Source of the DNA: an uncultured Bacteroidales bacterium
GTDB lineage: Bacteria; Bacteroidota; Bacteroidia; Bacteroidales; P3
Direction of reading: 5' to 3'
Length of the DNA: 64,000 bases
NCBI GenBank assembly: GCA_944320265.1
Contig: CALUGT010000015.1
Location: 3,194 to 67,193 of the forward strand
A program made the translations under genes and the position numbers. Below are positions 11,646 through 28,913 of this stretch, in pieces (the first letter of the stretch is position 1; each line of letters starts with the position of its first letter). Below the pieces are notes generated by a model that saw only the letters and a list, made by a program, of their open reading frames with translations, made no database searches and had not been told where the DNA came from.

Positions 11646-13721
11646 CTATTTCACCTCGTGCGCATTGATATCGCGCATGTAGGTCAGCTTGAAATCCCTG
11701 CACTTGCGCTTTTCCTGAAACATCCCCTCTATGGAATTATACTCATAGCGGTCAAAAATATCCAAACCTCGACCCAATGTAATAACCCAACCTGTGTCGG
11801 TTTTGATACACCTGTCGTGGAAATCGCGAAACTCGTAAGAAAAAACAATGCCATACTCACTCAGGTTCGTTTGCACTGTCTTCAACAGCGCAATCAAATC
11901 ATCCCGCTTCCCCGGCTCTTCAAAAGTCACTAATTTCAATTGCAACTCATCCACCGGACGAGTCTGGACCAACATCGCAGCAAACTCTATGAAATGCTTG
12001 ACCTGCCCCCGAGTACGGACATACGGGTCTTCCAGCACAATGGCATGCGCCGTTTCCAAATAAGGAGCAAACAGCTTGGCATAAGAAAGCCCCGTCTGTC
12101 CTTGGCGAATGGAAAGCGTCTGTTCCTTGAGCACAGGCGGTTTGGACAAGCCCCTGGATCCGACCGCTTTCCCATCCTGAATCCGGGAATCCCCTACCGT
12201 ATCCATGGGAATCGCATCCAGCGGAGAAGCCTCCTCAAAGGAATCCTCCGTAGCGTTATTGATGTTTTCCAATGTCTCTATTGCCACTTGTTTGCCCGTC
12301 CGCAAAGCATCGTAACGGAACACTGCCGGTTCGGCCTTGAAAGTCTCATCCACCCGGTAAAGCTGATCCTTCACCCTTTTGCGAGCCTCTGCGGCAAAGT
12401 CAATCAATTCATAAACTTCCTCATCCGTTGCTTCGCCATCGGGATACAACAACTTCATCATACCCGACACCGTCTTGCGGACAGCCAGATTATCCCTCTC
12501 CGAAAGCGAAGTATCGAATTGTGCATAACGTCCAAGAATATCGGTCCAATCCCTGTCGCGCAACTCATGGAACATCGCTGCAACATAATCCGAAATCAAG
12601 CCGAACCCCTTCGAGAAACTTTCCGTCTTCAAGACCGGCACCTCCCAACCCGGCGCGTAAAAATGAATCCGATCCAAGAAAGCCCCTTTCAAGAAGCCCT
12701 CCGGTATGCTTTCAAAAAGATGGGATTGACGCAACATATACGAAACCGTATGTTTGGTATTGCCCACAAAAACCATCGAAGCACTGGCTTCGTGCGTGGC
12801 CTTTCCTCGATTGAAAGACTTGTTTGCCAGATAATTCTGCATGATATCCACCAAAGCCGCATCCACGTTCCGCCCTTTTTGCTGCTCAAACTCGTCCATA
12901 GCCACCACATCCCAATACCCCACCAAACCCAGCAATTCCTTGTTGCCCGACATCTTGACAAACAGACGAGCCGGTGTCACATCCCCGCCGCTCACCAGCA
13001 CACTGTAAGGCGAAAGTTCCTGGAAAACATGCGTCTTTCCCGTCCCTTTGGGACCCAGTTCAATAAAATTGAAATTGTTCTCCACATGCGGCAGCAGACG
13101 AGCCAGTATGATGAGCTTTTCCCTACGGTTCAGCAAATCGGGATTCAAGCCGACCGTATGCATCAGGAAATCCAGCCATTCCTCAGTAGAGAAGTTCTTG
13201 CGCTGACTCACATATTCCTCCACATCCACCCCCGAAATCTGAATCGGCTTCAGATTCTGGATATCCCAACGAACCGTAAGGCTCTCTCCAGACAAATAGC
13301 CAATCTGCACAATGCACCACACTCCCGTACCCGACAGCAACTTGGGATTCTTCTTTACATATTCCGCCCCGATAGGCACTCCCGTCAATCCCAGATTGGA
13401 GAATACGGCATGGTAGGCATCAGCCTTCTCATTCAAGCTCACCGTAATCTTGTCAATCACCCGGTATTTGCCCCTCTCCCGGATTTTCCCTTTCACCGAC
13501 TCGGCATCGGCCCTATGGACATAATTTTCCCGAATCACCTCTTTCACTTGCTCTATGCCATCGGCAATAGCTGCCGGATCATCCGTGGCGCAATACTGCG
13601 CTAAAAGGTATTCCAAGACATAAGTAGGCACCGGCAAGCCGCCCTTGACCAAAAAAGCCAAATCCTTGCGGACCACCCGTCCCGGAAAGGATTCCAATAT
13701 TTTATCTTTCAATGTTTTCAT
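11646..13721 (-). CDS. brxL: BREX BrxL-like AAA+ protein with a C-terminal MIT_C (PLD-like) domain instead of a Lon-protease-like domain
   Basis: The N-terminus (KILESFPGRVVRKDLAFLVKGGLPVPTYVLEYLLAQYC) and Walker A (LGPKGTGKTHVF) match BrxL. It is the last gene of the BREX operon. The C-terminal 151 aa read TGLSYAKLFAPYLETAHAIVLEDPYVRTRGQVKHFIEF...FHDRCIKTDTGWVITLGRGLDIF. This closely parallels the MITD1 C-terminal domain (IEDPYIR...[22 protein letters not shown]). Confidence 0.85.
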   Translation of the reverse strand: MKTLKDKILESFPGRVVRKDLAFLVKGGLPVPTYVLEYLLAQYCATDDPAAIADGIEQVKEVIRENYVHRADAESVKGKIRERGKYRVIDKITVSLNEKADAYHAVFSNLGLTGVPIGAEYVKKNPKLLSGTGVWCIVQIGYLSGESLTVRWDIQNLKPIQISGVDVEEYVSQRKNFSTEEWLDFLMHTVGLNPDLLNRREKLIILARLLPHVENNFNFIELGPKGTGKTHVFQELSPYSVLVSGGDVTPARLFVKMSGNKELLGLVGYWDVVAMDEFEQQKGRNVDAALVDIMQNYLANKSFNRGKATHEASASMVFVGNTKHTVSYMLRQSHLFESIPEGFLKGAFLDRIHFYAPGWEVPVLKTESFSKGFGLISDYVAAMFHELRDRDWTDILGRYAQFDTSLSERDNLAVRKTVSGMMKLLYPDGEATDEEVYELIDFAAEARKRVKDQLYRVDETFKAEPAVFRYDALRTGKQVAIETLENINNATEDSFEEASPLDAIPMDTVGDSRIQDGKAVGSRGLSKPPVLKEQTLSIRQGQTGLSYAKLFAPYLETAHAIVLEDPYVRTRGQVKHFIEFAAMLVQTRPVDELQLKLVTFEEPGKRDDLIALLKTVQTNLSEYGIVFSYEFRDFHDRCIKTDTGWVITLGRGLDIFDRYEYNSIEGMFQEKRKCRDFKLTYMRDINAHEVK

Positions 13722-13778
13722 AATAAAAAACTTTCATCATGCAGCCATTGGCCCGATTGTCCATACGCAACTGCAAAA

Positions 13779-16394
13779 TTAAAAATCCCGTTCCACCAAG
13801 GTGTTGTTCCGCACATTTTCCTTGACAAGCGGGTTGAGCGGATCTTCCACATCGTACACCCTGAGCTGAAGCAAACCTCCACTGCAAGGCCGAACCAAAC
13901 GCAAGCTTACCTCATAGACCCGTTCCCGCAGACCTTCCGCCTCCGTATTGTCCATGACCACCTGCTGTTCGTTGCTCACCGGTTCGTCCCCTTGGTATAG
14001 ACAGCAAACCACCGTCCGACCCATCCGCTCCGAAGAGACAGCTTCCGACTGCACCAACTTGAAACGCAAAAGACTGGAAACCACGCTCAAGCCCGAATCC
14101 TTCAATACCAGGCCCACTTTTTCCGTCTTCTTCTCGTTCCGCCTGCTGCTATAAATGACCGGCACAAGCATTTCCTGCAAGCTGGCACCGCCATGGGCAA
14201 ACGCATAACCGCCCGGAGCCGCAAAACGATTTGTCCCGCAAGGCACCGCCACATAGACCGGTGATGCCGTTTTCACTCCCGACACCGTCTCCAAGGCAAA
14301 TTTAGCCACCCCTTCCACCGGTTCGGGATTTGCCGTAAGATAATAACGGGTCTTCAATTCCAAGCATTTCCCATCCTTTTCCAAGCCGTTATTCCCCGCA
14401 ACCGAAAGCTTGTCCTTTTCCTCAAAGGGAATGTCGTTATACAAGAATCCATGATCAGCCGTAATCAACACATTGGTAATGCTGTACGAATAGTGAAGCC
14501 GCTTGACCAAGACAGCCAGCTGCCGCACGGCCTCCCGGCAAGCCCGGATTACCTCGAACGGGCTTTGCGAATGGCTGGCCCGGTCTATGCTATCATGATA
14601 GATATAAACCAAAGTGTTCTTGAACAACTCCTTCAGAACCGCCGTGCCACTGTTCATCACATAGTCGAAACTTACACAGACCGATCTTTCCTTGAACATC
14701 TTCAATTGCGCCGACCTCTGATCCATCTCTTTCAGGACCTGCCCGTCCACCGCCATCTCCGTCCCCCTGAGTTCCAAGGCATGGTGGGGAAGCAGCGCGT
14801 TCTTGCAGAACTTGGTTTCCGTAGGCAACATGGCCCGCATAGCCGACAACTTGGCCACACTGGTCTCTTTCAGCAATTCCTGCCGCAATTCCGCCGCCAA
14901 TTCGTAACGCAAGGCATCGCTGACAATCACCACCTGCTTCACCGTCTTATCACACACTAAACTAAAGAAATCCTCCTGCTTGGGCAAAGAAAGGGAAGCA
15001 AATCCCTCCCCTTTTTCCTGCACGCAAGAAATCCACTCCCAATTCAATGTATGGCAAATACGGGCATAATCCTGATCCAGGCGAGCCTTGGCATCGGAAA
15101 AGCCCTCTCCTTCCGGGTTAAGGTGCTCCACCAGCGCATGAAACGCCTCCACGGAACGCCGGTAATAGAAATCCACAAGATAATATTCCGACAAGTACTT
15201 CCGGGCATATTCTTCCGGACTGTCCAGCTTCAGGCTCCCTATCTCATGCACCGTGGCATAATACAAGGATAACTGTTCCACAAAACGGAACGCGAACTGG
15301 ATAGGCGCTTCCGGCGGCATCTTCAAGGTAAGTTCCTTGACCTTGGAAGTGACCGATGCCGGGTCGGCAACCAGACCTGTCTCCAAGCTTTTCTGCAAAA
15401 TAGGCCAGCAAAGAGCTTCCGTGAGATAAAAATACGGGGCATCGACCCCATAACAGGCTATCAGTTTTTCTTCCTTGATGTCCGATGCCAATACCGACAC
15501 CGCTTCCTGGAATTTCCCGCCCAAGGCACGGTCATGAACGCCTGTCTCGTAAATCCGGACAAGCTGATCCAAAGCCGGCTCGCTGCTTACCTCATAGATC
15601 TTGTAATCATCGGACGGTACGGGAGCAAGCCCCCGGGTAATGATATTGTACTTGAGGCTTGCGGCCACCGCCTGCATCTTAAGCGGCGTATTTTCCTCGT
15701 ATGTCCGACCGAAAATACGCCGCAGCTTGTCATCGAGCGCCTTCCGCACATCCGGGCTCTTCCCTACCCGGTAAAAGAAATCCAGACGTTTCTTTTCCTC
15801 GCTTGCCAATCCCAATACCAGCAGCTTGACCACGATCATATCCCAGTCCAGCAGCTTCTTTTCTCCAAGATAAGAAGAAATCAAGGCCCGGCATACCACC
15901 TCCTCGTGAAAGGCTTCCGGCGTGTAATAAGGCTGCAACATGGCATGCAGCTTGGCCGACATCATCTCCCCGATATGCCGTTTCACAAAGGCGGCGTATT
16001 TCTGCGGAAGGCCATACTGTTGCAAGAAGGACGCATAATCCTCTTCCTGGTATTCCATATTGGCTTTCAGCAAATCGAGCAAGGGGAAGGATAACAGCTG
16101 CGCTTCCGTCTGCGGATAAGACTCCCCTCCAAACAGCAGGACCACCCGCTTGTCTCTCCACGTATGCTCTATGCTGTACTTGGCATTGAACCAAGCCCCG
16201 TCGAACACCTTATAGACATAGCCATCCTTCCACTCCGCCGCGTCCAGTTCCACCTTGATGATGTCCATCCGGTCGAACACGAAAAGCACATGAAGCGCCG
16301 GATTGTTCTCGAAATATCGGTATATCCTCTCTTGTACCATAGCTTTATTGTCTTTATACGCTCCTATCAAGAAAACAATGGCTTCTGAATGCAT
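13779..16394 (-). CDS. pglZ: BREX alkaline-phosphatase-superfamily protein PglZ
   Basis: 871 aa with PglZ-domain motifs (VVIVSDALRYELAAEL; VLITADHGF). It sits between pglX and brxL. An alternative start at 16340 would remove the 28-nt overlap with the upstream small ORF. Confidence 0.9.
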   Translation of the reverse strand: MHSEAIVFLIGAYKDNKAMVQERIYRYFENNPALHVLFVFDRMDIIKVELDAAEWKDGYVYKVFDGAWFNAKYSIEHTWRDKRVVLLFGGESYPQTEAQLLSFPLLDLLKANMEYQEEDYASFLQQYGLPQKYAAFVKRHIGEMMSAKLHAMLQPYYTPEAFHEEVVCRALISSYLGEKKLLDWDMIVVKLLVLGLASEEKKRLDFFYRVGKSPDVRKALDDKLRRIFGRTYEENTPLKMQAVAASLKYNIITRGLAPVPSDDYKIYEVSSEPALDQLVRIYETGVHDRALGGKFQEAVSVLASDIKEEKLIACYGVDAPYFYLTEALCWPILQKSLETGLVADPASVTSKVKELTLKMPPEAPIQFAFRFVEQLSLYYATVHEIGSLKLDSPEEYARKYLSEYYLVDFYYRRSVEAFHALVEHLNPEGEGFSDAKARLDQDYARICHTLNWEWISCVQEKGEGFASLSLPKQEDFFSLVCDKTVKQVVIVSDALRYELAAELRQELLKETSVAKLSAMRAMLPTETKFCKNALLPHHALELRGTEMAVDGQVLKEMDQRSAQLKMFKERSVCVSFDYVMNSGTAVLKELFKNTLVYIYHDSIDRASHSQSPFEVIRACREAVRQLAVLVKRLHYSYSITNVLITADHGFLYNDIPFEEKDKLSVAGNNGLEKDGKCLELKTRYYLTANPEPVEGVAKFALETVSGVKTASPVYVAVPCGTNRFAAPGGYAFAHGGASLQEMLVPVIYSSRRNEKKTEKVGLVLKDSGLSVVSSLLRFKLVQSEAVSSERMGRTVVCCLYQGDEPVSNEQQVVMDNTEAEGLRERVYEVSLRLVRPCSGGLLQLRVYDVEDPLNPLVKENVRNNTLVERDF

Positions 16395-16909
16395 TCACGG
16401 AATTGAGAAACATCGCAAACTTTGCATTTCGCCAATGCCTTTTCCACCCGGCTTTGCTGAGCGAACCAACGTTCAGCCCGGGCAGTCACATTCTTATTGA
16501 AAACGAACCAAGCAGATGAATCAATACGCAAACCGCCTTCTGAAAGCAAATCCCTCGTATGCGACATTTTCTCCCTCAATTCACTCAGAGACAAATTATT
16601 CGTATTCTTGTACTTCATTCTCAATTCTATCATCAACAACCGTCTCTCCCGCAATTGTCCGTCAGTTTGAGACGCAAGCCCGATTACCGCATCCATGGTA
16701 GGCTTTGGTTGAGCGGACTTGCAAATTTTACTCTCGTAAGTATCCATATCCAAGCATCGTATCTCCTTGTCAAAATAATCCGTTCCAGAGTAATCCCGAT
16801 TGGACACATCATTCAACAAAGCTCCGCATTTCGAGAACAAGAGATGACGCTCAAGATACGCATTATCATATACCAGGGCTTCCATATTCTTTGATTCTGT
16901 CCAAGGCAA
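16367..16909 (-). CDS. Hypothetical 180-aa protein, partner of the embedded ATPase (contains an Rx4H motif)
   Basis: The ORF overlaps the ATPase stop (16866) and the pglZ start (16394), so it is translationally packed into the BREX operon. The composition looks helical. It contains LSELREKMSHTRD (R112-x4-H117) and DAVIGL...LLMIELRMK. I recognise no family. Confidence 0.5.
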   Translation of the reverse strand: MPWTESKNMEALVYDNAYLERHLLFSKCGALLNDVSNRDYSGTDYFDKEIRCLDMDTYESKICKSAQPKPTMDAVIGLASQTDGQLRERRLLMIELRMKYKNTNNLSLSELREKMSHTRDLLSEGGLRIDSSAWFVFNKNVTARAERWFAQQSRVEKALAKCKVCDVSQFRECIQKPLFS

Positions 16910-18200
16910 TATTGAAAGACTTGAAAATCTCGGCTATCTCATGGCCAAGGTTCTTATAAACAAACTGATGGGGCGATGTTTGCGAAGGCTCTGCCACATA
17001 AAACCAAGTGGTATCCAGCATGCCTTCCTTCTCGGCTATGTCGTGGAGAGCGGCCACCATGTCGGGATTATGCGAAGCCAACAGCACTTTCAAGCCCAAT
17101 TTCTTGTTCAACAGCACCAGCAGCCGGGCAAACTCCACAATCCATTGCGGATGAAGATGCGCTTCCGGCTCATCAATCAGCAAAAGCGTATTCTTGTCCA
17201 AATGCCCATTTTCCAGCAAACGCTGCATATAGGCAAAAGTCTTGAAACCGGTAGCCACTTGCTTCAATTCTATATTCACCTGGCCATCCTTTGACACATA
17301 ACGAAGCTCCGGCCTCCCTATTGGGTTCTTTTCCATCAAGACCTTACCTTCTATCAAATGGCCAATCCCCTCCAGCATGGAAGAAGCCTCCGGCGACAAT
17401 GCATGCTTCTTATCCATAACCCTCCGCTGCAAATCCCTCCAAATCCTATTGGAAGAATCCTCCGTTGCCGCCATTGGCGTATCTATATAAATAGCATCCT
17501 TCAGATTCAGCAAACGGCCAACAGTATCCTGTTCCATAATCCCTACACTGTCTTCCTCCAACTGCAATTCTTCAGGCACACCTTCGTCCATAGGGAACCT
17601 TTGCTGCACGAACTCAAATAGAAGTTTCCTCGGCCTATTTCCAAGCTTTTGATGTAAGGCTTCGGTCTCCTTTTGCAGGTGTTCTCTTTCCTTCTGTGAA
17701 AATAGGGCAATAGACAAGGTCAAATCGCTTCCGATATGGATATCCAAAAATTTCAAAACCCTTTCCACCCGTTCTTTCGGCATCTCATCATCCAAGCCTG
17801 ACAAACATTCTTCCGTAAAGGCAAGGGCATCCAAATACAATTCCTGCATTTCTTCAATCATACTATCCAACTCTCCAGAAACAACTTGCATAAATTTCCC
17901 CTTGACTTGCTGTATCCTGTTTGCCGCACTATCCATCGGGTTATCAGAAACTCTTCCTCGTCCCAATTCCATGCAGGCAACACGCCAATCCTCCATCTTT
18001 TTCCACAACTTGCCACCGTAATCATCCACCACCAGATACCTTTCAAGATTCACAGCCCCATTGACAATATAATACAGCCAGCGAGAAAGGGTGCTTTTGC
18101 CGCATCCGTTGACTCCCGACAAGACCGTGATGCCGTCAAGCTCGATTTCCGCATTTTCAATAGCGTGATAGTCACGCATGATATATTTATATCGGCTCAT
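16866..18200 (-). CDS. ABC-like AAA family ATPase (AAA_15/AAA_21 type) embedded in the BREX operon
   Basis: Walker A is LSGVNGCGKSTL. A long helical insert is followed by Walker B/D-loop LLLIDEPEAHLHPQW and an H-loop-like LLASHNPDMV. No nuclease domain is visible in the 444 aa. Confidence 0.85.
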   Translation of the reverse strand: MSRYKYIMRDYHAIENAEIELDGITVLSGVNGCGKSTLSRWLYYIVNGAVNLERYLVVDDYGGKLWKKMEDWRVACMELGRGRVSDNPMDSAANRIQQVKGKFMQVVSGELDSMIEEMQELYLDALAFTEECLSGLDDEMPKERVERVLKFLDIHIGSDLTLSIALFSQKEREHLQKETEALHQKLGNRPRKLLFEFVQQRFPMDEGVPEELQLEEDSVGIMEQDTVGRLLNLKDAIYIDTPMAATEDSSNRIWRDLQRRVMDKKHALSPEASSMLEGIGHLIEGKVLMEKNPIGRPELRYVSKDGQVNIELKQVATGFKTFAYMQRLLENGHLDKNTLLLIDEPEAHLHPQWIVEFARLLVLLNKKLGLKVLLASHNPDMVAALHDIAEKEGMLDTTWFYVAEPSQTSPHQFVYKNLGHEIAEIFKSFNIALDRIKEYGSPGI

Positions 18201-18229
18201 AATCTCTAAAATTTCAAATGTTCAAAGCC

Positions 18230-19003
18230 TCATTTCAATTTGGCAAGGACATCGCCGAACTTGGCATGGTTCACAATAACCCCATCGTCCAAATCCAAAT
18301 CGATGGCCTGTTCCGCCACTACTTGCAAACGGTCGTGGTATTCCCGGCATTCATCCAATGTCTTTTCCAAAGCGCTCAACTTGCGCGTCTCCCCCGTGCT
18401 CAACTGGGCGGCCCGGGATTCCAAGTCCTTGGCCCGGTTTTGCAAAAAATCGATATAAGGCAGAAGGTATTTGACCCGGATGCGTTCCGCCGTGTAAGGA
18501 GCCATCCGGTGCAGATAGGTGATGCAGCGGAAAGCCCCCTTCCTGGAAGACCAAAGCCAGTAGATAGGGCGGTTCTGGTACATCCGCTTATGGTCTTTCC
18601 AGAACTCCTTGTCCACATAACGCTCTATGGTCATGCCCAAGCTCTTTTCCATGAAATTAAGGTTCTCGGTCAATTTTGCCGTGCCAAAGGCAATGCGGAC
18701 AAAGTCCACCACCCTCCGTTCCAGATTGTCCTCAAAAGGGCAATCGTGCGGCAGCAGGGGAATGATGCCGTCATCGTCTATCTGCAAGACTTGCCCCTTA
18801 TATTGGTAAGGAGCCAATTCCTCTGCCGTAGGCTTAGGATGGGCTATATGCAAACCCGGTTTATCCAAACGGTAACGCCCCATCCAGACACCCACCGCAT
18901 AACTGATCAATTGCTGCATGGCCACCTCCGGATGCCATACAATCCTTTCCGAACCTGCCACGTTTGTATTCATTGCTTTCATTTCTTCGCATTTCTTTTC
19001 CAT
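18230..19003 (-). CDS. pglX: BREX PglX, C-terminal fragment (separate ORF)
   Basis: It contains MQQLISYAVGVWMGRYRLDKPGLHIAH ... NRPIYWLWSSRKGAFRCITYLHRMAPYTAERIRVKYL, the conserved C-terminal region of BREX-1 PglX. The start is set at the first ATG (19003); the ORF track extends to a TTG at 19048. Confidence 0.8.
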   Translation of the reverse strand: MEKKCEEMKAMNTNVAGSERIVWHPEVAMQQLISYAVGVWMGRYRLDKPGLHIAHPKPTAEELAPYQYKGQVLQIDDDGIIPLLPHDCPFEDNLERRVVDFVRIAFGTAKLTENLNFMEKSLGMTIERYVDKEFWKDHKRMYQNRPIYWLWSSRKGAFRCITYLHRMAPYTAERIRVKYLLPYIDFLQNRAKDLESRAAQLSTGETRKLSALEKTLDECREYHDRLQVVAEQAIDLDLDDGVIVNHAKFGDVLAKLK

Positions 19004-19055
19004 ACACTCTTGCTTCAGACTTAAACGAACCAACTCCAAGAAAAGCAACCTATTT

Positions 19056-20735
19056 TCAGAAAAGAGTCCTTCCCTTTTCTGTAAGCCGGTAAGTCTGCTT
19101 CGCGCTGGTCGGCTTGTCCGGATACGTCATAGCGACATAACCCAGTCTGATAAGCGGAAGAATAATCTTTCGTTTCAGCTCTTTGGTTGAATCAAAAGAA
19201 AGATTATCGTTCAAGCTGTTGGCCGACATGGAACTCTTCCTTAAAAGGCATAGCAAATCAATCGTATCAGACATCAGTTCTTGAACACTATCCTTAGACC
19301 GCCCCTCCCACACTTGGACAAACATTTGTCCAAGTATCTGTCCAAGCTCTATCTTTTTCTTTATAACACACTGATTCACCATCAATTCAACTTGGACAGC
19401 CATTTGTCCAAGTCTGAGTCTAAGTCTGTCGTCAAGCACACATTCCTGCCCTTCAAAAACACGGTCAGCATCTTCGAACCCATGTCGACAAGGAATCGTA
19501 AGAAGAAAATAAGTTCTACCCTCATCCGTGTCAATAGTTGCTGGCGCAGATCCATTCTCTTTCAATGCCTTCTGAATTGTCGGTATCCCAGTCGCCCTGC
19601 CCTCCGTCAAATCCAATTCTTTCAAAAAATCGCCCAATCTACGGTTACGATACCTGCGAGCCTTCAATTTCTGCGCCATTTTTATAGCCTCCGCGCTAAT
19701 GGACCTATCAGGTCCGGCATAGCTCAATATATCGATATGGGTAGGTTCTACTGTGATTTCCACAGGTTCCCGTTCTTGATAATCACGGTGATACAAAGCA
19801 TTGACGACAGCTTCCTCTAAGGCTTGGTAAGGATAATTGAATATCCTATTCGATTTCTCGGTATCTGCCGGTTTGATAATCTTTGTCTTGACGACATTGG
19901 TACGAAGATACGACAAAGTTTCCTTGATAATCCGAGGTACAGGGCCGACTATCTTGGGAACCTCAATTAGTAAATCAGGATTGTCGATACTTCCGCCCGG
20001 AAACAACACGATATCAACTTGTGTAACAGGAAAGAACTTTTCTGGATATTCACAAAACATCATTATGGCACAATTTTTTATCTGCCTGCATTCTGTCGGT
20101 CCTGTCAGCAAATCCATCTCGTCAAGAATATCTATCAGCGGCCTCGCAACAAAACTTTCCGCCAGCTTGCTCCCTACTTTCTTGAGATGCTCATACACAA
20201 GTACGCCGGATATATCGTCTATTTTTGCAAAAGCATTGCCCCGTTCATCAAAGGGCACACGATTTACCAACTCACGTACCGCATCCAAAATCTCGCCTTT
20301 AGCCTCGATGGTGGAAGACTTGCTTCGTATATAAAATTTCGACACCGACTTTTTGGCAACTACGCTTTCAGCCACAGAATAAGGTCTGTTTATTCCAGCC
20401 GGAACCCATATGACAAGAATATTTTTCCCATCCACTTCTTCCACCGACACTTTAGAAAGGTAGGTTGGAGAAACCTTGGCATCATAGCCCACCATATCTT
20501 TCTGAATACGGTCTATCTCGTTTTCGGCCAAACCCTTTACCGGCCTCTTTGCAATCCCGTTTTCTTCTTCAACCCCCACCAGAATATATCCGCCTCCGAT
20601 ATTGTCAAAATCGGTGGCAAAGGCAGCAATAGTATGATAAATTTTATCCGGATTCCAACCCGCTTTAAATTCTATCCGGTTCGACTCGACCCTCCGTCTG
20701 TTAAGCAAATCTTCGATGTTTATAGGTAGTGCCAT
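19056..20735 (-). CDS. Schlafen/AlbA_2 domain plus HATPase_c_4 plus C-terminal wHTH protein, nested within pglX
   Basis: The N-terminus is VESNRIEFKAGWNPDKIYHTIAAFATDFDNIGGGYILVGVEEENG (AlbA_2). The middle is EEAVVNALYHRDYQEREPVEITV...GRATGIPTIQKAL (HATPase_c_4). The tail resembles winged-helix regulators. It is on the same strand as the two pglX pieces and is visibly more AT-rich than the flanks. Confidence 0.8.
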   Translation of the reverse strand: MALPINIEDLLNRRRVESNRIEFKAGWNPDKIYHTIAAFATDFDNIGGGYILVGVEEENGIAKRPVKGLAENEIDRIQKDMVGYDAKVSPTYLSKVSVEEVDGKNILVIWVPAGINRPYSVAESVVAKKSVSKFYIRSKSSTIEAKGEILDAVRELVNRVPFDERGNAFAKIDDISGVLVYEHLKKVGSKLAESFVARPLIDILDEMDLLTGPTECRQIKNCAIMMFCEYPEKFFPVTQVDIVLFPGGSIDNPDLLIEVPKIVGPVPRIIKETLSYLRTNVVKTKIIKPADTEKSNRIFNYPYQALEEAVVNALYHRDYQEREPVEITVEPTHIDILSYAGPDRSISAEAIKMAQKLKARRYRNRRLGDFLKELDLTEGRATGIPTIQKALKENGSAPATIDTDEGRTYFLLTIPCRHGFEDADRVFEGQECVLDDRLRLRLGQMAVQVELMVNQCVIKKKIELGQILGQMFVQVWEGRSKDSVQELMSDTIDLLCLLRKSSMSANSLNDNLSFDSTKELKRKIILPLIRLGYVAMTYPDKPTSAKQTYRLTEKGRTLF

Positions 20736-20751
20736 GGTATGTTCTCTATTT

Positions 20752-23721
20752 TTATTCGGTGGGGGATTTCTCGATGGAGATTTCGCCTTGCTGGAGGATG
20801 GTCACCTCTTCCAAGGGCACATCGGGGGTAAGCTCGTCGGCGAGGTCGTAGATTTCGATGAACTGCCGGTTGAGTTCCTCCTCGTTCCGGTGCAATTGCA
20901 GGAACTTGGTCTCCCATTTGGTCTTATAGACCTCATAGCGCCATTCCAAACTGTCTAAATCGAGTGCCGGCAGATTCACACAAGGCACTCCCCGGAAATC
21001 GGCATCTTCAGCCATAATATCTCTATAGGCATTCTCATCTATCGCCACCAACTCGTTCTGTTGGAAATCCCAAGAAGTCTCATGCGCGTCCCAGTCCTGC
21101 TTGGAGATGGAGATGTTTTGAAAAACTAATAAATCTATCTTATCTGAATCCTCAATAACAATAAAGGGAATCTTTCCCATAGGTCCCTCATGATAATCCA
21201 AAGTTGGAGATAATGTCTGTAAAAACACATATGATAAAGCCGAATTAAGGTATCCCATAATGCAATACAAATCATTATCAGCATAAGGGAAACAAACCGA
21301 ACCCTTGGTTTCAAAAAGCCAACTCCTATCAAAATAACGAAAAGACGGTTTCCCAGAGGATATTGTAGACCACGTAGCACCTATCTTTCCAAAATAGAAG
21401 CCTTCATTCTGAGGACGAGACTTCAACTTTCCATCTATGTCTTTAAAATTTTTTATTTCAACTCCGTTATGTTCCCAATTCACCACATATTCCATATTGC
21501 CATACCATCGTCTAAAAGTACCACCTTTGGTAATAGGAAACCATTTTTTTCCTGATTCTTTTGCTTCTTCAGCAGAACCCATTCCAAATCCAATCCGTGC
21601 CAGAGTGACTTCATGCCAATATCGAATAAACCTGGCGTTGTCCGCTGTTTGCAAGCCTACACAAGGCTTAGCAACAGCGGACAACGCCAGGTTTCCCGCG
21701 AAGCGGGAAAAAATTTTTTGAGAAACCCAGTACCCTATCGGGCTTCCGGGGATTTTTTTGAAATTTTGCTGAAGAACATGGGGGTAATAAATCCGATTTC
21801 CAACCTCCGAATAAGGCAATGTCTCAACTTCTTTGGTATATTCCTTGAAATTATACTTAAAATCATGGTCTGCTAAAGTCTGTTCAAACAACATCCGCAA
21901 ATGCTTTTGGTCAAACTCTTGGAATGTACGCTCCACCAAACGGAAATAGGTCCCGCAAGCAGCCGGATTCTGCGACTTGGCAATCACAGCCGACGACGAG
22001 CCAAAGTCTGCGCCAAACACCCCTCTACTAAGATGCAAAATAGAATCGATAGATTGACTATCGAGTATTCCTTTCCGCAAATTTTCAAAAGTACTTAGAA
22101 ACATCCAAGATGGAGGGATAATAAACCCATATCGTCCATGCGTTTCTAATCTTTGGGGCATCATTTCAACAAAAACCGTAGCCAAGTCCCCCTTCCCAGC
22201 CTCGTAATGCTTCTTCACATAAGCCGACAAGACCGGATTCATATTGCCGCCGCCCATATAAGGTGGATTCATCACCAAAACCGCATATTTCTCCGTCAGT
22301 ACCTTAATCAGGTCCAAGGCCGGTAGCAAAGCCGTGACGGATTCCGGCAACAGGGGCTGCGCCTTCCAGTAATCCATCGCCTGGGATATGGCCGATAGCG
22401 TAGTTTCGGACAAGTCGAACTTCATAATGGAACCCAAGGATTCGGCATCGGATAGCAAAGAAAAGGCCTTTTGCATCTCTGCCAGCATCTTGTCATTCTC
22501 CAGACCATTAAAGAAGGCTTTCAACGCCTTATCCAACGAGCCATAAGCCCCCTCATTCCAAGGCTGAGGCATATCCAAGACCTGCGGCAAAACCTTGGCA
22601 TCGACAAAGGAGGCATCTTTCTGGCAGGCTTTGAGCAGAAGCGCAAACAAGGCAAGCTGCTTGGCCCGGGTATCTATGTCCACGCCCCTCAGGTTGCAAC
22701 GGAAGATATTCTCCACCGCTTCCTTGCGCCCATAGCCCTCGGAGATATAAAGCTCGTACAAAAGGTCGAAGCATTCGTTGAGGATATGGCCAGATCCGCA
22801 AGCCAGATCCGCCACCTTCAAATCGGTCAGTTCGGCATAGCGGTAACGGCATTCCTCCGGTGTCGGTTCTCCCTCCACCCAATAAGCCCACTTCCGCTTC
22901 GCCTCCTCGGCATAAGGATTGTTATCCCAATAAATCCTCCCCAAGGTATTCTGCACCATATATTTCACAATCCAATTGGGCGTGAAAATCTGGGTTGCCG
23001 CTGGAATCTCGTCCGCCTCGAACTTGCCTTTCTTGGCAAACACCTCATCCTTGCGTTCCGAGATATAGAACTGGTAGAGCCAGCCTATCAGTTCCGGGGA
23101 ACGGTAGTCCTCCTCGGCAATAAAGTCGGTATGGTTGAGCATGTCCACAAAACCGCCCTCGCTCAGGATGTTGATCGGCAGCATCAGTTCCGTGTAGTCC
23201 TGCATGCGCCCGAAACAAGCCTGCATCAAAGGGTTCTGATGGCACCAGGCCACCATCAGAAGCGCGAACTGCTCGGTGGTCTTGGTATCGTCTTCCAACA
23301 ATTCCAGCAAACGCGTCCTTTCCGCCTCCGGCATACGGGGCAAGCGTCCCCGCCTGGCATCGTCCACGATACGGGGGGTGCGCACCTCGTCCACGAACTC
23401 GATTACCGGCTCGCACAGGCCGTTTTTCTGAAGAATCCGAATCGCCACCAGACGGTTGAACCAGGTGTAAGCCGCCTCCTCGCAGGTCTCCTGCATCCCT
23501 TTCCGGGCGATTCTCTCGTAGAGCGCCATCCAGCTATGGTAAAAGCGTTCCGTATAGAAACCGCCCTGCCAGAGGGTTCCGCCCTGCATCAGCTTGGGCA
23601 TGGCTTCTTCCGGGATATGGCCGTTCTTGTCAAAGCCCAAAGAACGTATCTTGGCTTCCACGCCGCTCTTGAGGCGGGTCCGGGCTTCGTTGGCGAATTT
23701 CTTCAGCTTGTTGGTTTCCAT
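20752..23721 (-). CDS. pglX: BREX adenine methyltransferase PglX, N-terminal fragment (989 aa, methyltransferase core)
   Basis: The N-terminus (FANEARTRLKSGVEAKI..., YTWFNRLVAIRILQKNG) is typical of PglX. Motif I is VADLACGSGHIL and motif IV is VLVMNPPYMGG. It ends ...TILQQGEISIEKSPTE-stop, about 240 aa short of a full-length PglX. Confidence 0.9.
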   Translation of the reverse strand: METNKLKKFANEARTRLKSGVEAKIRSLGFDKNGHIPEEAMPKLMQGGTLWQGGFYTERFYHSWMALYERIARKGMQETCEEAAYTWFNRLVAIRILQKNGLCEPVIEFVDEVRTPRIVDDARRGRLPRMPEAERTRLLELLEDDTKTTEQFALLMVAWCHQNPLMQACFGRMQDYTELMLPINILSEGGFVDMLNHTDFIAEEDYRSPELIGWLYQFYISERKDEVFAKKGKFEADEIPAATQIFTPNWIVKYMVQNTLGRIYWDNNPYAEEAKRKWAYWVEGEPTPEECRYRYAELTDLKVADLACGSGHILNECFDLLYELYISEGYGRKEAVENIFRCNLRGVDIDTRAKQLALFALLLKACQKDASFVDAKVLPQVLDMPQPWNEGAYGSLDKALKAFFNGLENDKMLAEMQKAFSLLSDAESLGSIMKFDLSETTLSAISQAMDYWKAQPLLPESVTALLPALDLIKVLTEKYAVLVMNPPYMGGGNMNPVLSAYVKKHYEAGKGDLATVFVEMMPQRLETHGRYGFIIPPSWMFLSTFENLRKGILDSQSIDSILHLSRGVFGADFGSSSAVIAKSQNPAACGTYFRLVERTFQEFDQKHLRMLFEQTLADHDFKYNFKEYTKEVETLPYSEVGNRIYYPHVLQQNFKKIPGSPIGYWVSQKIFSRFAGNLALSAVAKPCVGLQTADNARFIRYWHEVTLARIGFGMGSAEEAKESGKKWFPITKGGTFRRWYGNMEYVVNWEHNGVEIKNFKDIDGKLKSRPQNEGFYFGKIGATWSTISSGKPSFRYFDRSWLFETKGSVCFPYADNDLYCIMGYLNSALSYVFLQTLSPTLDYHEGPMGKIPFIVIEDSDKIDLLVFQNISISKQDWDAHETSWDFQQNELVAIDENAYRDIMAEDADFRGVPCVNLPALDLDSLEWRYEVYKTKWETKFLQLHRNEEELNRQFIEIYDLADELTPDVPLEEVTILQQGEISIEKSPTE

Positions 23722-23779
23722 TTTGCTTTTCTTTTCAATAATGCCGTTTTGTCGCAGACAAGGGTTTCCGTATCCGGTT

Positions 23780-26700
23780 TTACTTTATCACCGTCACTTC
23801 GTAGCCGTCATTGATTTTGTCCATCAGCTGCTGCTTGATCTTCTTCAAATAGTCATCCACTTCCTTTTCCGTGCGCATGGGCACGAAAGTCCGGGTGGAC
23901 AACTCTATACTGCAAGGCTTCCGGGTCTTGCCTAGTTTCCCTGCCGACTGCCCGTCTTGGTCCATGCCTGGATCATGGGCCGTACCGGGAAGGCCGGGCT
24001 GGGGATAATCCTGCGGTTTCTTCCGAGCCAGTTCCGCTTGAATCAAATCCAATTGCTGGCTTGCAAAACTTTGCGTATCCAGATTGTTCTTCAGCATCAG
24101 GATATTGCTCGAGGCGGTCTTTTCCTGAAGGATGCGCTTGCGGTCGGCCAATACGGACTTGTCCACGCCCTGCTGCTCGGCACTCTGTTCCAAAGCATCG
24201 AAAAGGGCATTATATTCCTTTTCTATCTGCTGCCGCAATTCCTGGCGCTGCTTGTCGAGGGCTGCCGAAACAGCATTTTTCAACTTGATATAGTCCCGGA
24301 TGGAGATAGGCCAGGCTTGGGTCTCTATGCCCTTGAGTTCTTCCGCCTGCGCTTGGAGTTCGGCCGGTACAAAGGCAAAATTGTCGCGGTTTTCCCGTAC
24401 AAAAGCCAGCAAGGAACGGTAATTGTCAAACTGATCCTGCACAAAAGCCAGAACTTCCTTGCAGGTGTCCGCCAGCTTGGCCGCTTCTTCCTGACTGTCT
24501 ATGATACTCTGGAAGAATTTCTGGTTGTCCCGGATTTCTATCCACTGATCCAGCATCGCAATAAATTCCCGCAGCGGCTTCACAAACGGGTATTCCGCGT
24601 AACGGCTTTCCTCCTCCCGGTATGTCTTTTTGCAGGCGGGCAGGCTGTTCTCGTTCTTGGCATCCTTGCATTGGCGGAAAATCTGGGTGCTGTCGGACGA
24701 GGCGAAGGCATCCTTGCCGAAAATCCGTTTCCATGCATCCACAAAACGGTTCACCAAATCCTGCGGAATGGCTTCCGCCCGGCGAAGCGTGAATTTCTTG
24801 GTCTCGGTCAGGATGCGGCTCGCCACGACAGAGGCTTCCACTTCCGGACTATTGAGGTAAAGGTAGTCCCGCCGATGACGGCGCACCAGCTCGTTAATCA
24901 CGTACAAAGTGCAGACATCGTCCCAACCGTAGGGGGCTTTGGCGAACTTGGCCAATACATCCGCCACATTCACTTCGGCAAACTGCTTGTCAAGATAGAT
25001 TTCCACTTCCTGCTCGGCCTGCGTCAAGCTGGAGTTCAGCTCGCCATAGTCGTAAGACTGCACGGGACGCAGGATGGACTGGCGCAACTGTTCGGAAGTA
25101 TGAGGGTATTCGGCCCGGTTCACCAAGCCCGCCTTGGTATAGATATTGCCTAAATGCTTCTGCAAGGCTTTGCGGTAACGTTCCTCGCCCTTGCTGTTCA
25201 ATATTTCCGGATCTTCCACCACCGACACGCCCGACACGATGGGGCATGTGTCCAAAATAGAGGCAAAGCTCTTGGCAATGACGGTATCCATCAATTCCCT
25301 GGCTCTCTTCTCGAACTCGCCCCTGATTTTGGCGTTCTCTTCGGTAAGCGCCGGGGATGCCATGTAACGGCTCACTTGGCAATACCAATAGAAGGCGTTC
25401 CGCAAGCGGTTGTCTTTCTTGTACTGGGAGGCCACGTAATAGACAAGCCTGTTAGCCGGATTGCCCACCGTGATGGCGGCAGCGCTGTCGTATTCCTCGT
25501 CCATCTGGAAATCGACCACCACATCGGCGTTGTTGCTCAGGAAGGTACGTTGCTTGATAGTCGCCCCCACTGCAAAGGAACGGGTCATATACGTCTCCTT
25601 GTTCTTGGGGTTGCCGAAATGCCGGAAAAAGATATCCTTCAATACTTCGGCTTGGGTATTGTTGTCAGGGACCTGGCCTTTGATCTGCGAGGCCACTTTC
25701 ATTTCCTCTTCCGAATAGAAGCTATAGGTTTCGGGAAGCCCTTTCCTGGCCTGCTCCCGACGGATGATATTGTTATCGCAGAAATAGTCCAGCACCTTTT
25801 CCACTTCCTGCTTGATGGTGAGCCAAGGCGTCCTGAGATCGTTGACCAACAAAGTCGTCACATTGTCCAAGCTGGCCGGGAACACCATCTTGTCCCGATC
25901 ATCGATATTGCAAATCATGAACAGGACATTGGCTACCCGCCGAGCCAGTTCCGGCTTGGAATAGGTCCGGGCCATATCCATCGCGTTGCTGATGGCTTTC
26001 TGCCCTTTTGCCTGCAAGCCTTCCTCGAACATATTGTTGTACAGCTCGTCGAAAGAGACGAAATGCCCCAACTCCTGGTCCTTGTCATTCTTAGCCGTGG
26101 AATGAATCACTTTGATAATGCTGCGTTCATTGCCCTTCACCTCCTTGGCCACATAGCCCAACAGCAGGAAATTATTGAATACCTGCATGATTAGCTTGAA
26201 CTGGTAGGGCACGAAGGGATAATAGGCAACAAAATCTTCCTGGCTGCGATAGGACTCATAGCTATTGGGCAACTTGAAATGAAGGTCAAAGGAAGGGCTT
26301 TCCTTGGCATACCATTCCCCTAAAACCGGTTTCACTTCCGCTTTCTTTTCCAGGATACGTTTCTGGGTAATCACTTCGGGCTTGGTGCCTTTGAGGGATA
26401 CCGTCACCTCGAAGCGCCCCTTGATTTTCCCTTCCTTGTCCTTTCCTTCCATAATGTTGCAGTCGTCCATCACTTCCGAAAGGTCCTGCTGCGCGGTGCA
26501 GGCCACCCAAACCTGGTTCTGACAAGACTCGGACAGCTTGGTGACAATCTCCTGCAAGTTCAGGTAACGGTCTTTTTCCTTGTTGATGAATTGGGAAACC
26601 TCATCGGCCAACAGGACCAAACGGTAATCCTTGCCTTTGTCCTTGAGCCACGATGCCACCTCGCCGGCAAAACGCTCTATGCTGACCGTGGTATCGCGCT

Positions 26701-27427
26701 TGATGATACGCTCCCGTATGCTTTCCTTGTCGAGCGAAGGGGCCAATTCCGCCGCAATGTCCAAGACCATGCCCAGCTCGTTGTCCACCAAATCGGCAGC
26801 CTCGCCGGGATCATCCCAATCAGCCCCTATCTCCCGGATACGTTGCTTGAACTGGTCAAAGACCCCTTTCTCGGCCAAAGGCTTTTCCAGATGCTGCGCC
26901 AAGGTAAGGTTGAACTTGTTGAAGCCCCGTTTGGCATTGAACTCGTTCCAGAATACATGCAGGAAGGCCTTCTTCTTGTCGGTGGAATTGTCGTAAGAAG
27001 TCTCCAGATTGAATATGCAGGTGTCTATCGTGGCTTTCTTGAGCCAATTGGCAATGCCAAGCAGGTCGGCATAATCAAAATCGAGGTTATGTTCGGTATC
27101 CCGCATGTCTATCGCCTTGACGGCTTGCAGGAAGCGTTCCATCGCCTCCTCCTGGGTATCAGGCGAGATGCAATAGTCGAGGTATTTCAGAAAATGGGAT
27201 TTTCCCGAACCGTAATAACCGTCTATCCAAATCCCCACATGCTCGAAAGGCAGGTTGTCTTTCAAGGCCGCTAGTATCCGGTACAAACCCGACATGGTCT
27301 CATCGGTAAAGACATATTCCGAGATTTCAATCTGCTTGGTAGCCTTGTCCAGCTTGGTAGCGCTGACCGCCGGATTGACGGGACGTTCAATGGGCTTCTC
27401 GTATAATTCTTTCAGTTTCATAATCAT
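23780..27427 (-). CDS. brxC: BREX ATPase BrxC/PglY
   Basis: 1215 aa with a P-loop (DGYYGSGKSHFLKYL). Size and position between brxB and pglX fit BrxC. Confidence 0.9.
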   Translation of the reverse strand: MIMKLKELYEKPIERPVNPAVSATKLDKATKQIEISEYVFTDETMSGLYRILAALKDNLPFEHVGIWIDGYYGSGKSHFLKYLDYCISPDTQEEAMERFLQAVKAIDMRDTEHNLDFDYADLLGIANWLKKATIDTCIFNLETSYDNSTDKKKAFLHVFWNEFNAKRGFNKFNLTLAQHLEKPLAEKGVFDQFKQRIREIGADWDDPGEAADLVDNELGMVLDIAAELAPSLDKESIRERIIKRDTTVSIERFAGEVASWLKDKGKDYRLVLLADEVSQFINKEKDRYLNLQEIVTKLSESCQNQVWVACTAQQDLSEVMDDCNIMEGKDKEGKIKGRFEVTVSLKGTKPEVITQKRILEKKAEVKPVLGEWYAKESPSFDLHFKLPNSYESYRSQEDFVAYYPFVPYQFKLIMQVFNNFLLLGYVAKEVKGNERSIIKVIHSTAKNDKDQELGHFVSFDELYNNMFEEGLQAKGQKAISNAMDMARTYSKPELARRVANVLFMICNIDDRDKMVFPASLDNVTTLLVNDLRTPWLTIKQEVEKVLDYFCDNNIIRREQARKGLPETYSFYSEEEMKVASQIKGQVPDNNTQAEVLKDIFFRHFGNPKNKETYMTRSFAVGATIKQRTFLSNNADVVVDFQMDEEYDSAAAITVGNPANRLVYYVASQYKKDNRLRNAFYWYCQVSRYMASPALTEENAKIRGEFEKRARELMDTVIAKSFASILDTCPIVSGVSVVEDPEILNSKGEERYRKALQKHLGNIYTKAGLVNRAEYPHTSEQLRQSILRPVQSYDYGELNSSLTQAEQEVEIYLDKQFAEVNVADVLAKFAKAPYGWDDVCTLYVINELVRRHRRDYLYLNSPEVEASVVASRILTETKKFTLRRAEAIPQDLVNRFVDAWKRIFGKDAFASSDSTQIFRQCKDAKNENSLPACKKTYREEESRYAEYPFVKPLREFIAMLDQWIEIRDNQKFFQSIIDSQEEAAKLADTCKEVLAFVQDQFDNYRSLLAFVRENRDNFAFVPAELQAQAEELKGIETQAWPISIRDYIKLKNAVSAALDKQRQELRQQIEKEYNALFDALEQSAEQQGVDKSVLADRKRILQEKTASSNILMLKNNLDTQSFASQQLDLIQAELARKKPQDYPQPGLPGTAHDPGMDQDGQSAGKLGKTRKPCSIELSTRTFVPMRTEKEVDDYLKKIKQQLMDKINDGYEVTVIK

Positions 27428-28035
27428 TCATTAATCAGAAGCGTGGCACGATAAGTATGATTGTCGGGAAGGAGGCCGAAAAGCCGGAAGGAATTGCCTT
27501 CCCGCTTGCCGGGATAAAAGACAATAATCTTGTATTTGTCGGTCTGGTTGTAGTCTTCGTAAAGAGCCAGGAATTCGTTGACCCGGAGATAGGGAAACAT
27601 GGATCCGATGCCGTGCAAGAAGACATAGGGCCGCTTGTATTGGTCTTTTTGGGAAATATGATGCTGGATCCGATGGTCGATGTATTTCAGGAAATCCTCA
27701 TGATGGGCGTTGCGCGTCAAGGTATCCTGAACGTTGGAAGCCTGAGCCGGGTCGTTTTCTTCCTTTTTCAAAAGGTAGCCGAGCATGGAAGGATTGTTCA
27801 AGAACTTCTTTTGGTCCAAGAAGGCGCAAAATTCCTCAAAAAGATTCAACACCAGCACATCCACGTAATTGAGCGGGCGTATCAGGTTGGCCTTGAATTC
27901 CTGTATCTCCTTCCGGATACCGTATTCGTTCTCGGCAGGGTACTGGAAAAGATAAAAGTTGTAGAACAAATCCCCGTTTTCCGCATCCTGGAAACCGGGA
28001 CTGCTCAGCTTCTCATAGAGTTCCTTTACGGTCAT
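27424..28035 (-). CDS. brxB: BREX protein BrxB (DUF1788)
   Basis: From the Met at 28035 the sequence reads MTVKELYEKLSSPGFQD...FYNFYLFQYPAENEYGIRKEIQEF...VFLHGIGSMFPYLRVNEFL...IVFYPG. This is a DUF1788-like pattern. It has ATGA-type overlaps with brxA and brxC. Confidence 0.85.
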   Translation of the reverse strand: MTVKELYEKLSSPGFQDAENGDLFYNFYLFQYPAENEYGIRKEIQEFKANLIRPLNYVDVLVLNLFEEFCAFLDQKKFLNNPSMLGYLLKKEENDPAQASNVQDTLTRNAHHEDFLKYIDHRIQHHISQKDQYKRPYVFLHGIGSMFPYLRVNEFLALYEDYNQTDKYKIIVFYPGKREGNSFRLFGLLPDNHTYRATLLINE

Positions 28036-28661
28036 GCCAATGATGTTTTCAATTTCTCTATCTGGTAAGGCTGCAGCAAACAAGCTTCCAGGAACCAGGC
28101 TTCGCCATGCAAAAGGTAATAAGCCTGGTTGCCGCACAGCAACGGATGCAGACCGTTGTCCTCATCCAACATGCCTACTTTGCGAAGCAGGGTCAGATAG
28201 GTGCTTGCCAGTTTCTTCTTGGTAGCTTCCGTCCAAGAGTCCACAAAATCGTCCTTGGCCGAAAGTTCGTTGAGTTCCATATAAATGTCGTCCAGGGTTA
28301 CGCTCTTGGAAATGGAGTTCCACTTTTTCATGGCCACATTGACATGGAAGTCGAACAGAATCCGGTAAGTCTTGAGCAAGACAAAAAACAAGGCAGCTTT
28401 CCGGTCTTCTTCCGGCATCTGAACATAATCCTGCCAGAAAGAAACCGGCATGGCATCGTAACGCCTTTCCACCTCGGCCATGATCCGCTTCCGGGACGTC
28501 TCGGCATTGATATGCAGAAGCCGGTTCTCGGAAGCTTCCTGTTGCAGGAATTCTTGCCGATTTCCGGACATAAGCAGCGGCAAGAGGATATTGGTCTCCT
28601 CGTACAGGAAACCGCCTCCTGAAACCGCTGCGGAATAAGGGCTATTGTATTTCTTTTTCAT
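28032..28661 (-). CDS. brxA: BREX protein BrxA (DUF1819)
   Basis: From the Met at 28661 the sequence reads MKKKYNSPYSAAVSGGGFLYEETNILLPLL...RKRIMAEVERRYDAMP...AALFFVLLKTYRILFDFHVNV. This is a DUF1819-like pattern. It is the first gene of the operon. Confidence 0.85.
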   Translation of the reverse strand: MKKKYNSPYSAAVSGGGFLYEETNILLPLLMSGNRQEFLQQEASENRLLHINAETSRKRIMAEVERRYDAMPVSFWQDYVQMPEEDRKAALFFVLLKTYRILFDFHVNVAMKKWNSISKSVTLDDIYMELNELSAKDDFVDSWTEATKKKLASTYLTLLRKVGMLDEDNGLHPLLCGNQAYYLLHGEAWFLEACLLQPYQIEKLKTSLA

Positions 28662-28913
28662 AATTGCGCAAATATGCAAATTTAAGAAATTCTTATGTAC
28701 CGAATGGATTCCTGTCAAAATTCATACATATTACAAACAACATTTCCCTATAAGAAGGTATTTCCATAAAGAAAAATACCTATTTATAGCGATAACAAAA
28801 CCCGTGAGACCCTTGTACTTTCGCAAACGAAAACAGAGACAGCAAACATCCAATCCAAAAATTTGATTTTATTTAAAATAACACCATAAAAAAACAAAAT
28901 AAATTCAAATAAC

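Follow-up and report, generated by a model that had tools for sequence, protein, structure and literature searches.

The stretch of DNA analysed here comprises 64,000 nucleotides (nt) from an uncultured Bacteroidales bacterium (GenBank assembly GCA_944320265.1, contig CALUGT010000015.1, positions 3,194 to 67,193 of the forward strand) and is referred to throughout as the window. On its minus strand, from 11646 to 28718, it carries a single co-oriented cluster with all six core genes of a type 1 bacteriophage exclusion (BREX) system, brxA, brxB, brxC, pglX, pglZ and brxL, as identified with Pfam (Table 1). BrxA, BrxB, BrxC, PglZ and BrxL are intact, and pglX is present as two open reading frames (ORFs), here termed pglX-N and pglX-C, with a Schlafen-family gene (the passenger) between them in the same orientation. 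These three ORFs, with a Schlafen/AlbA_2-HATPase_c_4-winged helix-turn-helix (wHTH) gene in the middle, had been reported from the letters alone (the original prediction), and the ORF list and Pfam bear this out. The methyltransferase motifs and the spacing that it described are likewise found in the sequence: the 989-aa PglX-N contains the S-adenosylmethionine-binding motif I DLACGSGHIL at residues 305–314 (22809–22780) and motif IV NPPY at residues 485–488 (22269–22258), as is expected of a type 1 BREX PglX, and 16 nt separate its stop codon (TAA) from the passenger ATG.

The two pieces are collinear parts of one PglX. On the PADLOC PglX profile PDLC02521 (1174 positions), the N piece covers positions 1–931 and the C piece 936–1170 with no overlap, and together they give the full-length match to the PglX/BrxX family, including the BREX-specific C-terminal region. 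What the window does not encode is a single polypeptide of ~1200 aa, as the first ORF is closed by a stop codon and the second opens with its own start codon beyond a 559-aa gene. Alignment to proteins of known structure gives the same picture: PglX-N aligns with Salmonella PglX (8c45) over residues 1–886 and beyond (E=1e-127), and PglX-C with residues 945–1195 of Escherichia coli BrxX (9ewz, E=8e-48) and 972–1215 of the Salmonella protein. This places the cut at residue ~960/961 in Salmonella numbering and ~940–945 in E. coli numbering. Across the junction, five single-chain relatives have the sequence ...TILQQGEISIE-NGQ-IVWHxDVxxKQLISY...; in the window, PglX-N ends ...ILQQGEISIEKSPTE*, 9 codons past ILQQGE, and PglX-C resumes ...ERIVWHPEVAMQQLISY. 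The same linker position is broken in every split locus looked at. In Salmonella PglX, the spacer helices span residues 850–960 and the final C-terminal region 961–1225 (PMC11341690), a boundary with which the break in the window coincides, and a comparative study describes the end of PglX as a wHTH plus a coiled-coil-like extension (PMC12839542), both of which the break precedes. By these alignments, pglX is cut at a domain junction, where a short linker that varies in length connects the spacer helices with the final C-terminal region. The predicted collinearity, domain-junction breakpoint and openness of both halves were therefore all recovered.

One coordinate of the original prediction needs correction. 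The listed ORF of the PglX-C region runs from 18230 to 19048 (272 aa from a TTG), and the C piece had been started at 19003/19048, some 20–25 codons too early. Likeness between the window and a sister-strain contig begins only at 18988 and continues downward from there, and homologous stand-alone C pieces have 9–17 residues ahead of the conserved WH motif. Hence, the start is most likely ATG 18982 (250 aa) or ATG 18973 (247 aa). The resulting protein consists of a beta-sheet/wHTH part bearing a metal site, plus a two-helix bundle. The metal-site residues of E. coli BrxX, D997, D999, D1012 and Y1113 (PMC11842806), all fall within the C piece and are kept in the window, and D66, D68, D82 and Y169 of PglX-C are invariant among 54 split C pieces. 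Modelled alone with AlphaFold2, PglX-C reaches a pLDDT of 93.1 and a pTM of 0.87, and a Foldseek search with the model matched only BrxX/PglX chains, in their C-terminal part (TMq 0.84–0.86). We are confident from the model that PglX-C folds autonomously.

The split recurs in related genomes, in line with the call of the original prediction to look for the same architecture elsewhere. Counting only loci with readable DNA, 9 of 18 related loci (one genome per species) are split, 7 are contiguous and 2 are decayed, and a scan of metagenomes gave 28 split loci out of 80, with 51 contiguous (one with a nonsense codon) and 1 unassigned. More than 50 distinct 90%-identity clusters consist of intact stand-alone C pieces, all starting at the same place, and 110 of 120 homologues of the PglX-N tail end within 25 residues of ILQQGE, although the search behind these counts is biased to short proteins. 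It returned nothing longer than ~1.75 times the query, so that its length distributions are biased to fragments; with a 111-aa query, the window's own 989-aa protein was not returned. The shortness of all of the best 120 C-piece homologues was for this reason rejected as a biological signal. Representatives at 50% identity are uninformative on architecture, given that split pieces cluster with longer proteins, and the two candidates checked lay at contig ends.

What lies between the pieces varies from locus to locus, and at least six different passenger sets occupy the slot. They include a DUF1016/YhcG nuclease (loci L001–L003), Fic-wHTH genes (L010–L012 and L036–L041), ORF6N with a 56-aa remnant that shares 55% identity with a Fic-passenger wHTH (L034), DUF3791/DUF3990/DUF6078 (L024 and L027) and AlbA_2 types (L013, L020 and L030); in L023 the slot is empty, at 55 nt. 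Passengers of the split metagenome loci were Fic with HTH (13), DUF1016 (6), Bro-N-Fic (5) and a DUF3990 set (1). The most direct evidence of passenger exchange is a contig of run X27, which resembles the window as far as 18988 and resumes the likeness at 20751; the 1762 letters that the window has in between are replaced by 1609 unrelated ones. A contig of run X29 breaks at 18988 as well. The limits of the X27 match set the cassette edges at the PglX-N stop codon and the PglX-C start region. A 30-nt end of the 1609-nt alternative passenger had no match among the fetched loci. Given at least six passenger sets, one empty slot and replacement in a sister strain, the present passenger probably did not create the split, which is instead a standing trait of a Bacteroidales BREX lineage.

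The detached C pieces are under purifying selection as judged from their codons. Pairwise ratios of nonsynonymous to synonymous divergence (dN/dS) among split C pieces are 0.09–0.28, and the recent pairs give 0.087 (window and L013) and 0.128 (L026 and L027), at dS values for young pairs of 0.08 and 0.15. On a tree of 94 C domains with locus-verified state, the split state changes 9 times, the nearest neighbour is in the same state for 84 of the 94 loci, and passenger types are intermixed inside clades of closely related split C pieces. A first tree had suggested 28 switches between split and contiguous forms, but it was built on length-biased hits and was rejected in favour of the locus-verified count. 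The intermixed passengers and the 9 changes show that the split persists while passengers turn over, and the tree points to several gains or losses of the split, or to its movement by recombination. Contiguous PglX proteins have linkers of 10–35 residues at the split position, which is evidently a permissive site, and the linker of the contiguous locus L046 includes a part similar to a split relative's N tail, suggestive of re-fusion.

Several related loci have features of their own at or near this position. L009 (7432–11092), L095, L105 and L119 encode a contiguous PglX with a 35-residue linker rich in D, G, S and T, and the pglX of L009 lies in two overlapping frames (825 and 404 aa), indicating a frameshift. 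L020 (1–3597 and 5532–10717) holds a tandem pair of pglX genes, a contiguous copy followed by a SIR2 gene and then a split copy with an AlbA_2 passenger, and at the DNA level the two copies share 88% identity in their C regions. In L027 (4850–8356), PglX-N contains an in-frame Pfam match to Y1_Tnp (IS200-like) at residues 981–1055, upstream of the conserved tail.

A second exchangeable segment lies inside PglX-N. Strains L013 and L122 are 98–99% identical to the window in the flanks and completely different over PglX-N residues ~513–867 (22183–21120), with the same two boundaries, and variant contigs of runs X2, X6 and X28 end or join at 22183, 21781 and 21120. The GC content of this module is 0.40, compared with 0.54 (5' part), 0.51 and 0.52 in the constant parts of pglX; the passenger is at 0.44 and the cassettes overall are at 0.40–0.46. 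The module looks like a cassette exchange of the part that would read the BREX motif, and its difference between near-identical strains is as expected of selection for new specificities.

Within the module lies a quasi-palindrome (31-nt arms, 5–7 nt loop) that supplies the codons for NLALSAVAKP-CV-GLQTADNARF at the start of the target-recognition domain (TRD). It is also present in L027, L034, L036, L093, L096, L104, L105, L106, L114, L115, L117, L119 and L121, and its centre (~27 nt) occurs in both orientations among loci, with a loop of acaca or tgtgt and a peptide GLATADNARF or GLQTADNARF. Strain X2 departs from the window exactly at the quasi-palindrome, and assembly breaks and indels occur there. 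Given that neither E. coli nor Salmonella PglX conserves the peptide encoded by the left arm, the constraint on this element appears to act on DNA or RNA.

By its motif and domains, the passenger is a prokaryotic Schlafen. Its residues 17–24 (20687–20664) read ESNRIEFK, an instance (Ex4ExK) of the Ex4(E/D)xK catalytic motif of prokaryotic Schlafens (PMC13056530), and HATPase_c_4 and Fic-like_C wHTH domains follow at residues 324–407 and 493–552 (Pfam). It shares this SLFN_AlbA_2 domain, the fused HisKinase-like ATPase and the C-terminal helix-turn-helix (HTH) with the prokaryotic Schlafen HisKinase-HTH class, which makes up 19% of prokaryotic Schlafens (PMC13056530). One bacterial Schlafen is a phage-triggered, Mn-dependent tRNase (PMC13056530), and for at least 1017 taxa, Schlafen-HisKinase-wHTH genes are reported in linkage with BREX and related loci (PMC12839542). 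By analogy, the passenger is most likely an independent, phage-triggered, tRNA-cleaving backup effector, although the class description, as far as available, demonstrates activity for no protein with precisely this domain arrangement, its characterised example being RorSlfn5 (PMC13056530). The passenger shares only ~25% identity with its AlbA_2 counterparts in L020 and L030. An internal repeat at 19309–19424 (ACTTGGACAAACATTTGTCCAAGT-like, direct and inverted) gives a repeated peptide LGQM(A/F)VQV just before the wHTH.

Table 1 Features of the BREX operon in the window (positions in the window; a dot in the strand column marks a feature without strand).
Feature	Position	Strand	Evidence or remark
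brxA	28032..28718	-	Pfam BrxA E=1.5e-29
brxB	27424..28137	-	Pfam BrxB E=7.7e-25
brxC, 1215 aa	23780..27427	-	Pfam BREX_BrxC_helical and BrxC wHTH
pglX-N, 989 aa, ATG; N-terminal helical bundle, methyltransferase domain, TRD, spacer helices	20752..23721	-	Pfam Eco57I and N6_Mtase
Specificity module within pglX-N, strain-variable, residues ~513-867	21120..22183	-	Strain divergence and GC
Quasi-palindrome, 31-nt arms	21628..21694	.	Inside pglX-N
Cargo slot, pglX-N stop codon to ~6 nt before pglX-C start	18989..20751	-	X27/X29 contig edges
Passenger, Schlafen, 559 aa, ATG	19056..20735	-	Pfam SLFN_AlbA_2 4.7e-13, HATPase_c_4 1.4e-6, Fic-like_C 1.3e-10
pglX-C, 250 aa from ATG 18982 (247 aa from ATG 18973)	18230..18982	-	Homology to PglX end
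AAA_15/AAA_21 ATPase, 444 aa, second embedded accessory gene	16866..18200	-	Pfam; nearest PADLOC models HEC-02A, AriA
180-aa partner ORF of the ATPase, without family match	16367..16909	-	ORF list, Pfam, PADLOC
pglZ, 871 aa	13779..16394	-	Pfam PglZ E=1.3e-37
brxL, 691 aa	11646..13721	-	Pfam BrxL_N, BrxL_ATPase, MIT_C

Elsewhere in the operon, the AAA_15/AAA_21 ATPase and its 180-aa partner form a second embedded pair between pglX-C and pglZ, and in strain L013 the middle part of the ATPase gene is replaced. The operon can also be missing as a whole, as one contig of run X6 joins 11646 to 28727 through a 17-nt filler, which indicates that some strains of the same community precisely lack it. 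Its neighbours are ordinary Bacteroidota chromosomal genes, including a cation diffusion facilitator (CDF) transporter and a protein with a type IX secretion sorting domain. The window sequence is present in chicken-gut metagenomes, and no similar DNA was found in E. coli genomes or a plasmid collection. Scans inside the operon for sigma-70 promoters, terminators and the Bacteroidetes -33/-7 pattern gave hits at chance level only, and plus-strand shadow ORFs across the region had no family match. Outside the operon, at 50709–50898 on the minus strand, the Bacteroidetes promoter pattern TTTG-N19-21-TAnnTTTG is matched three times in tandem within 190 nt, and two of the matches are identical 32-mers.

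Compared with single-chain PglX/BrxX (E. coli HS, 9EWZ/8ZEK; Salmonella D23580, 8C45/8Q56), the window protein has the same domain order, motifs and metal-site residues, but is encoded in two genes with another gene between them and does not conserve K1076/K1077. A split PglX has been described before, in Brevibacterium casei, in which two coding sequences correspond to the 'N-terminus and middle' and the 'C-terminus', the two being separated where the variable region ends (Milman et al. 2023, PMC9881135). Its authors likewise proposed that both pieces work jointly, and read the split as a way of varying the end of the first protein through programmed inversions (PMC9881135). The B. casei split is tied to inversions of the 3' end of the first coding sequence, whereas the window has neither inverted repeats leading to silent cassettes nor a nearby invertase: no inverted repeat longer than 31 nt was found in 10000–32000, none in 28 other split loci, and no recombinase among the neighbouring genes. 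An exchangeable-passenger slot is not described for B. casei, where the breakpoint can be set beside that of the window by description only.

Embedded accessory genes are also known, such as BrxU and PARIS in Salmonella BREX, the Schlafen-HisKinase-wHTH 'backup effectors' (PMC12839542) and the DUF1016, RhuM and Fic/DOC genes that occur between hsdR, hsdM and hsdS of Type I restriction-modification (R-M) systems (PMC9881135). The same passenger families (Schlafen-HisKinase-wHTH, Fic and DUF1016) recur among them, co-oriented in the operons, but these genes lie between complete core genes, whereas the slot in the window lies within the coding sequence of one. The original prediction had known of no Schlafen gene nested inside pglX. 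One split PglX and the linkage of Schlafens to BREX are already published (PMC9881135, PMC12839542), which narrows the novelty implied by the original prediction; in a limited literature search, in which absence is not proof, we found no description of a cargo slot within pglX or of passenger turnover there.

We favour, as probable though well short of certain, the reading that PglX works here in two pieces around an exchangeable cargo slot. A type 1 BREX operon would here make PglX naturally as two polypeptides. PglX-N (helical N-domain, methyltransferase, target-recognition domain and two spacer helices) and PglX-C would re-associate non-covalently into the 'lower jaw' of PglX, and the usual activities of type 1 BREX would be expected to follow, N6-adenine methylation of a non-palindromic 6-bp motif and exclusion of unmethylated phage. 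The slot would be bounded by the PglX-N stop codon and the PglX-C start codon, would hold co-oriented accessory defence or toxin genes, and would have its cargo swapped between strains, probably through homologous recombination in the strongly conserved coding flanks. By its position, the passenger would be inherited, and probably transcribed, together with BREX. The original prediction had left open a two-piece enzyme or an inactivated methyltransferase; recurrence, intact halves, purifying selection and a diversifying specificity region favour the former, and the decay of some related split loci speaks for the latter.

Several observations weigh against this reading. K1076 and K1077 of E. 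coli BrxX, which are needed for defence there, are Q and N in the PglX-C of the window, and Went et al. failed to express a larger Salmonella C-terminal domain by itself (PMC11341690). Disruption affects ~6 of 21 split loci compared with ~3 of 42 contiguous ones; in favour of the reading, 15 of the 21 split loci readable in full keep an intact PglX-N of at least 940 aa. The C pieces of L029 and L030 are truncated or internally deleted, and the PglX-N of L122 lies in two frames. In a human-gut clade, every split locus with a DUF1016/YhcG passenger (L093, L094, L106, L107 and L111) has an independently inactivated PglX-N, by two frameshifts and the nonsense changes GAG>TAG and TAY>TAA, with the C pieces intact, and in L093 the passenger is frameshifted too. 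Besides the window, L020 alone combines an intact locus with an AlbA_2 passenger, and it carries a further pglX that is contiguous. As for transcription, two faecal metatranscriptomes contain contigs over the passenger and PglX-C that cross their junction, but these are shallow and may include DNA, and chicken-gut runs labelled RNA-Seq were rejected as transcript evidence given their flat depth and contigs of 25–79 kb, which make them effectively DNA.

A rival possibility is that the present or an earlier passenger simply broke pglX, leaving a dead methyltransferase and a decaying BREX remnant that serves only as a carrier of accessory genes. The decayed relatives are what it would lead one to expect, and the C-terminal region of E. 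coli BrxX holds DNA-binding and defence residues, so that separation could be fatal without re-association. However, both pglX pieces and all other BREX genes are intact in the window, the split C pieces evolve at the low dN/dS given above with invariant metal-site residues, and the more than 50 distinct intact C pieces share one starting place. Stop and start codons are kept while passengers turn over, and the specificity module diversifies among near-identical strains. The original prediction would have given way to a sporadic disruptive insertion with decayed halves; the arrangement is instead recurrent with varied passengers, although decay does occur in several related loci, and we regard disruption in the window as unlikely.

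Two further accounts concern how the pieces act. PglX-N alone might be a sufficient methyltransferase, with PglX-C as a separate regulatory or licensing subunit (for example in the control of restriction versus modification, or as a decoy for Ocr-like inhibitors) whose dosage is set independently, possibly through the passenger. Streptomyces PglX without flanking subdomains still methylates in vitro, mutations in the Salmonella PglX C-terminus unlink restriction from modification according to a review (PMC12707154), Ocr contacts lie in the C-terminal domain, and PglX-C by its model folds autonomously. No observation sets this account apart from simple re-association, though, and single-chain and split forms alternate among close relatives (the 9 tree changes) with apparent re-fusions (L046), which argues for functional equivalence of the two forms; we consider such uncoupling improbable. 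Far less credible still is a rejoining of the halves, whether at the RNA or protein level or through excision of DNA, as an intron, a split intein or 'fractured gene', an excisable element or an inversion shufflon of the B. casei type. Split inteins with a free-standing gene between gene halves are known (PMC2677866) and PglX is a frequent target of programmed inversions (PMC9881135), but no intron or other RNA family was found in 17800–21300, and no intein halves stand at the gene ends, where the tails are only 5 residues (after ...ISIE in PglX-N) and ~12 residues (before WH in PglX-C), far below the ~100 and ~35 aa of intein halves. Flanking direct repeats are at chance, the best being a 7-mer (~1.5 expected), and a target-site duplication around the passenger was rejected given that only the 7-mer AAAATAG follows both stop codons, about as chance predicts. 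A recombinase gene and long inverted repeats are absent in the window and in the 28 other split loci.

A working two-piece PglX also admits a stronger version, which we put forward as a doubtful possibility. The pglX linker would serve as an intragenic slot dedicated to cargo (a 'defence islet inside a gene') in which unrelated effectors such as Fic, Schlafens, YhcG nucleases and DUF3990 sets are swapped by flank recombination, and the nesting itself would be functional, with the output of PglX-C, and hence the switch from modification to restriction, dependent on transcription or translation through the passenger. If true, the dosage of the backup effector would be tied to that of BREX, and horizontal transfer could not separate the two.

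For annotation, the split has a practical consequence, as pipelines will annotate a locus of this kind as 'truncated PglX plus hypothetical protein' and may count the BREX system as incomplete. Accessory defence genes were already known to be embedded in R-M and BREX operons; this idea is extended here to a slot inside a core gene, and the population data show both cargo and specificity module being exchanged between near-identical strains. The last ~250 residues of PglX are conserved and needed for DNA and Ocr binding, and their role in BREX is still called unknown. Their repeated detachment under selection indicates that the PglX C-terminal region forms an autonomous module and can be provided in trans, and the natural cut site could be used for two-piece reconstitution, for partner pull-downs and for asking whether this region licenses restriction.

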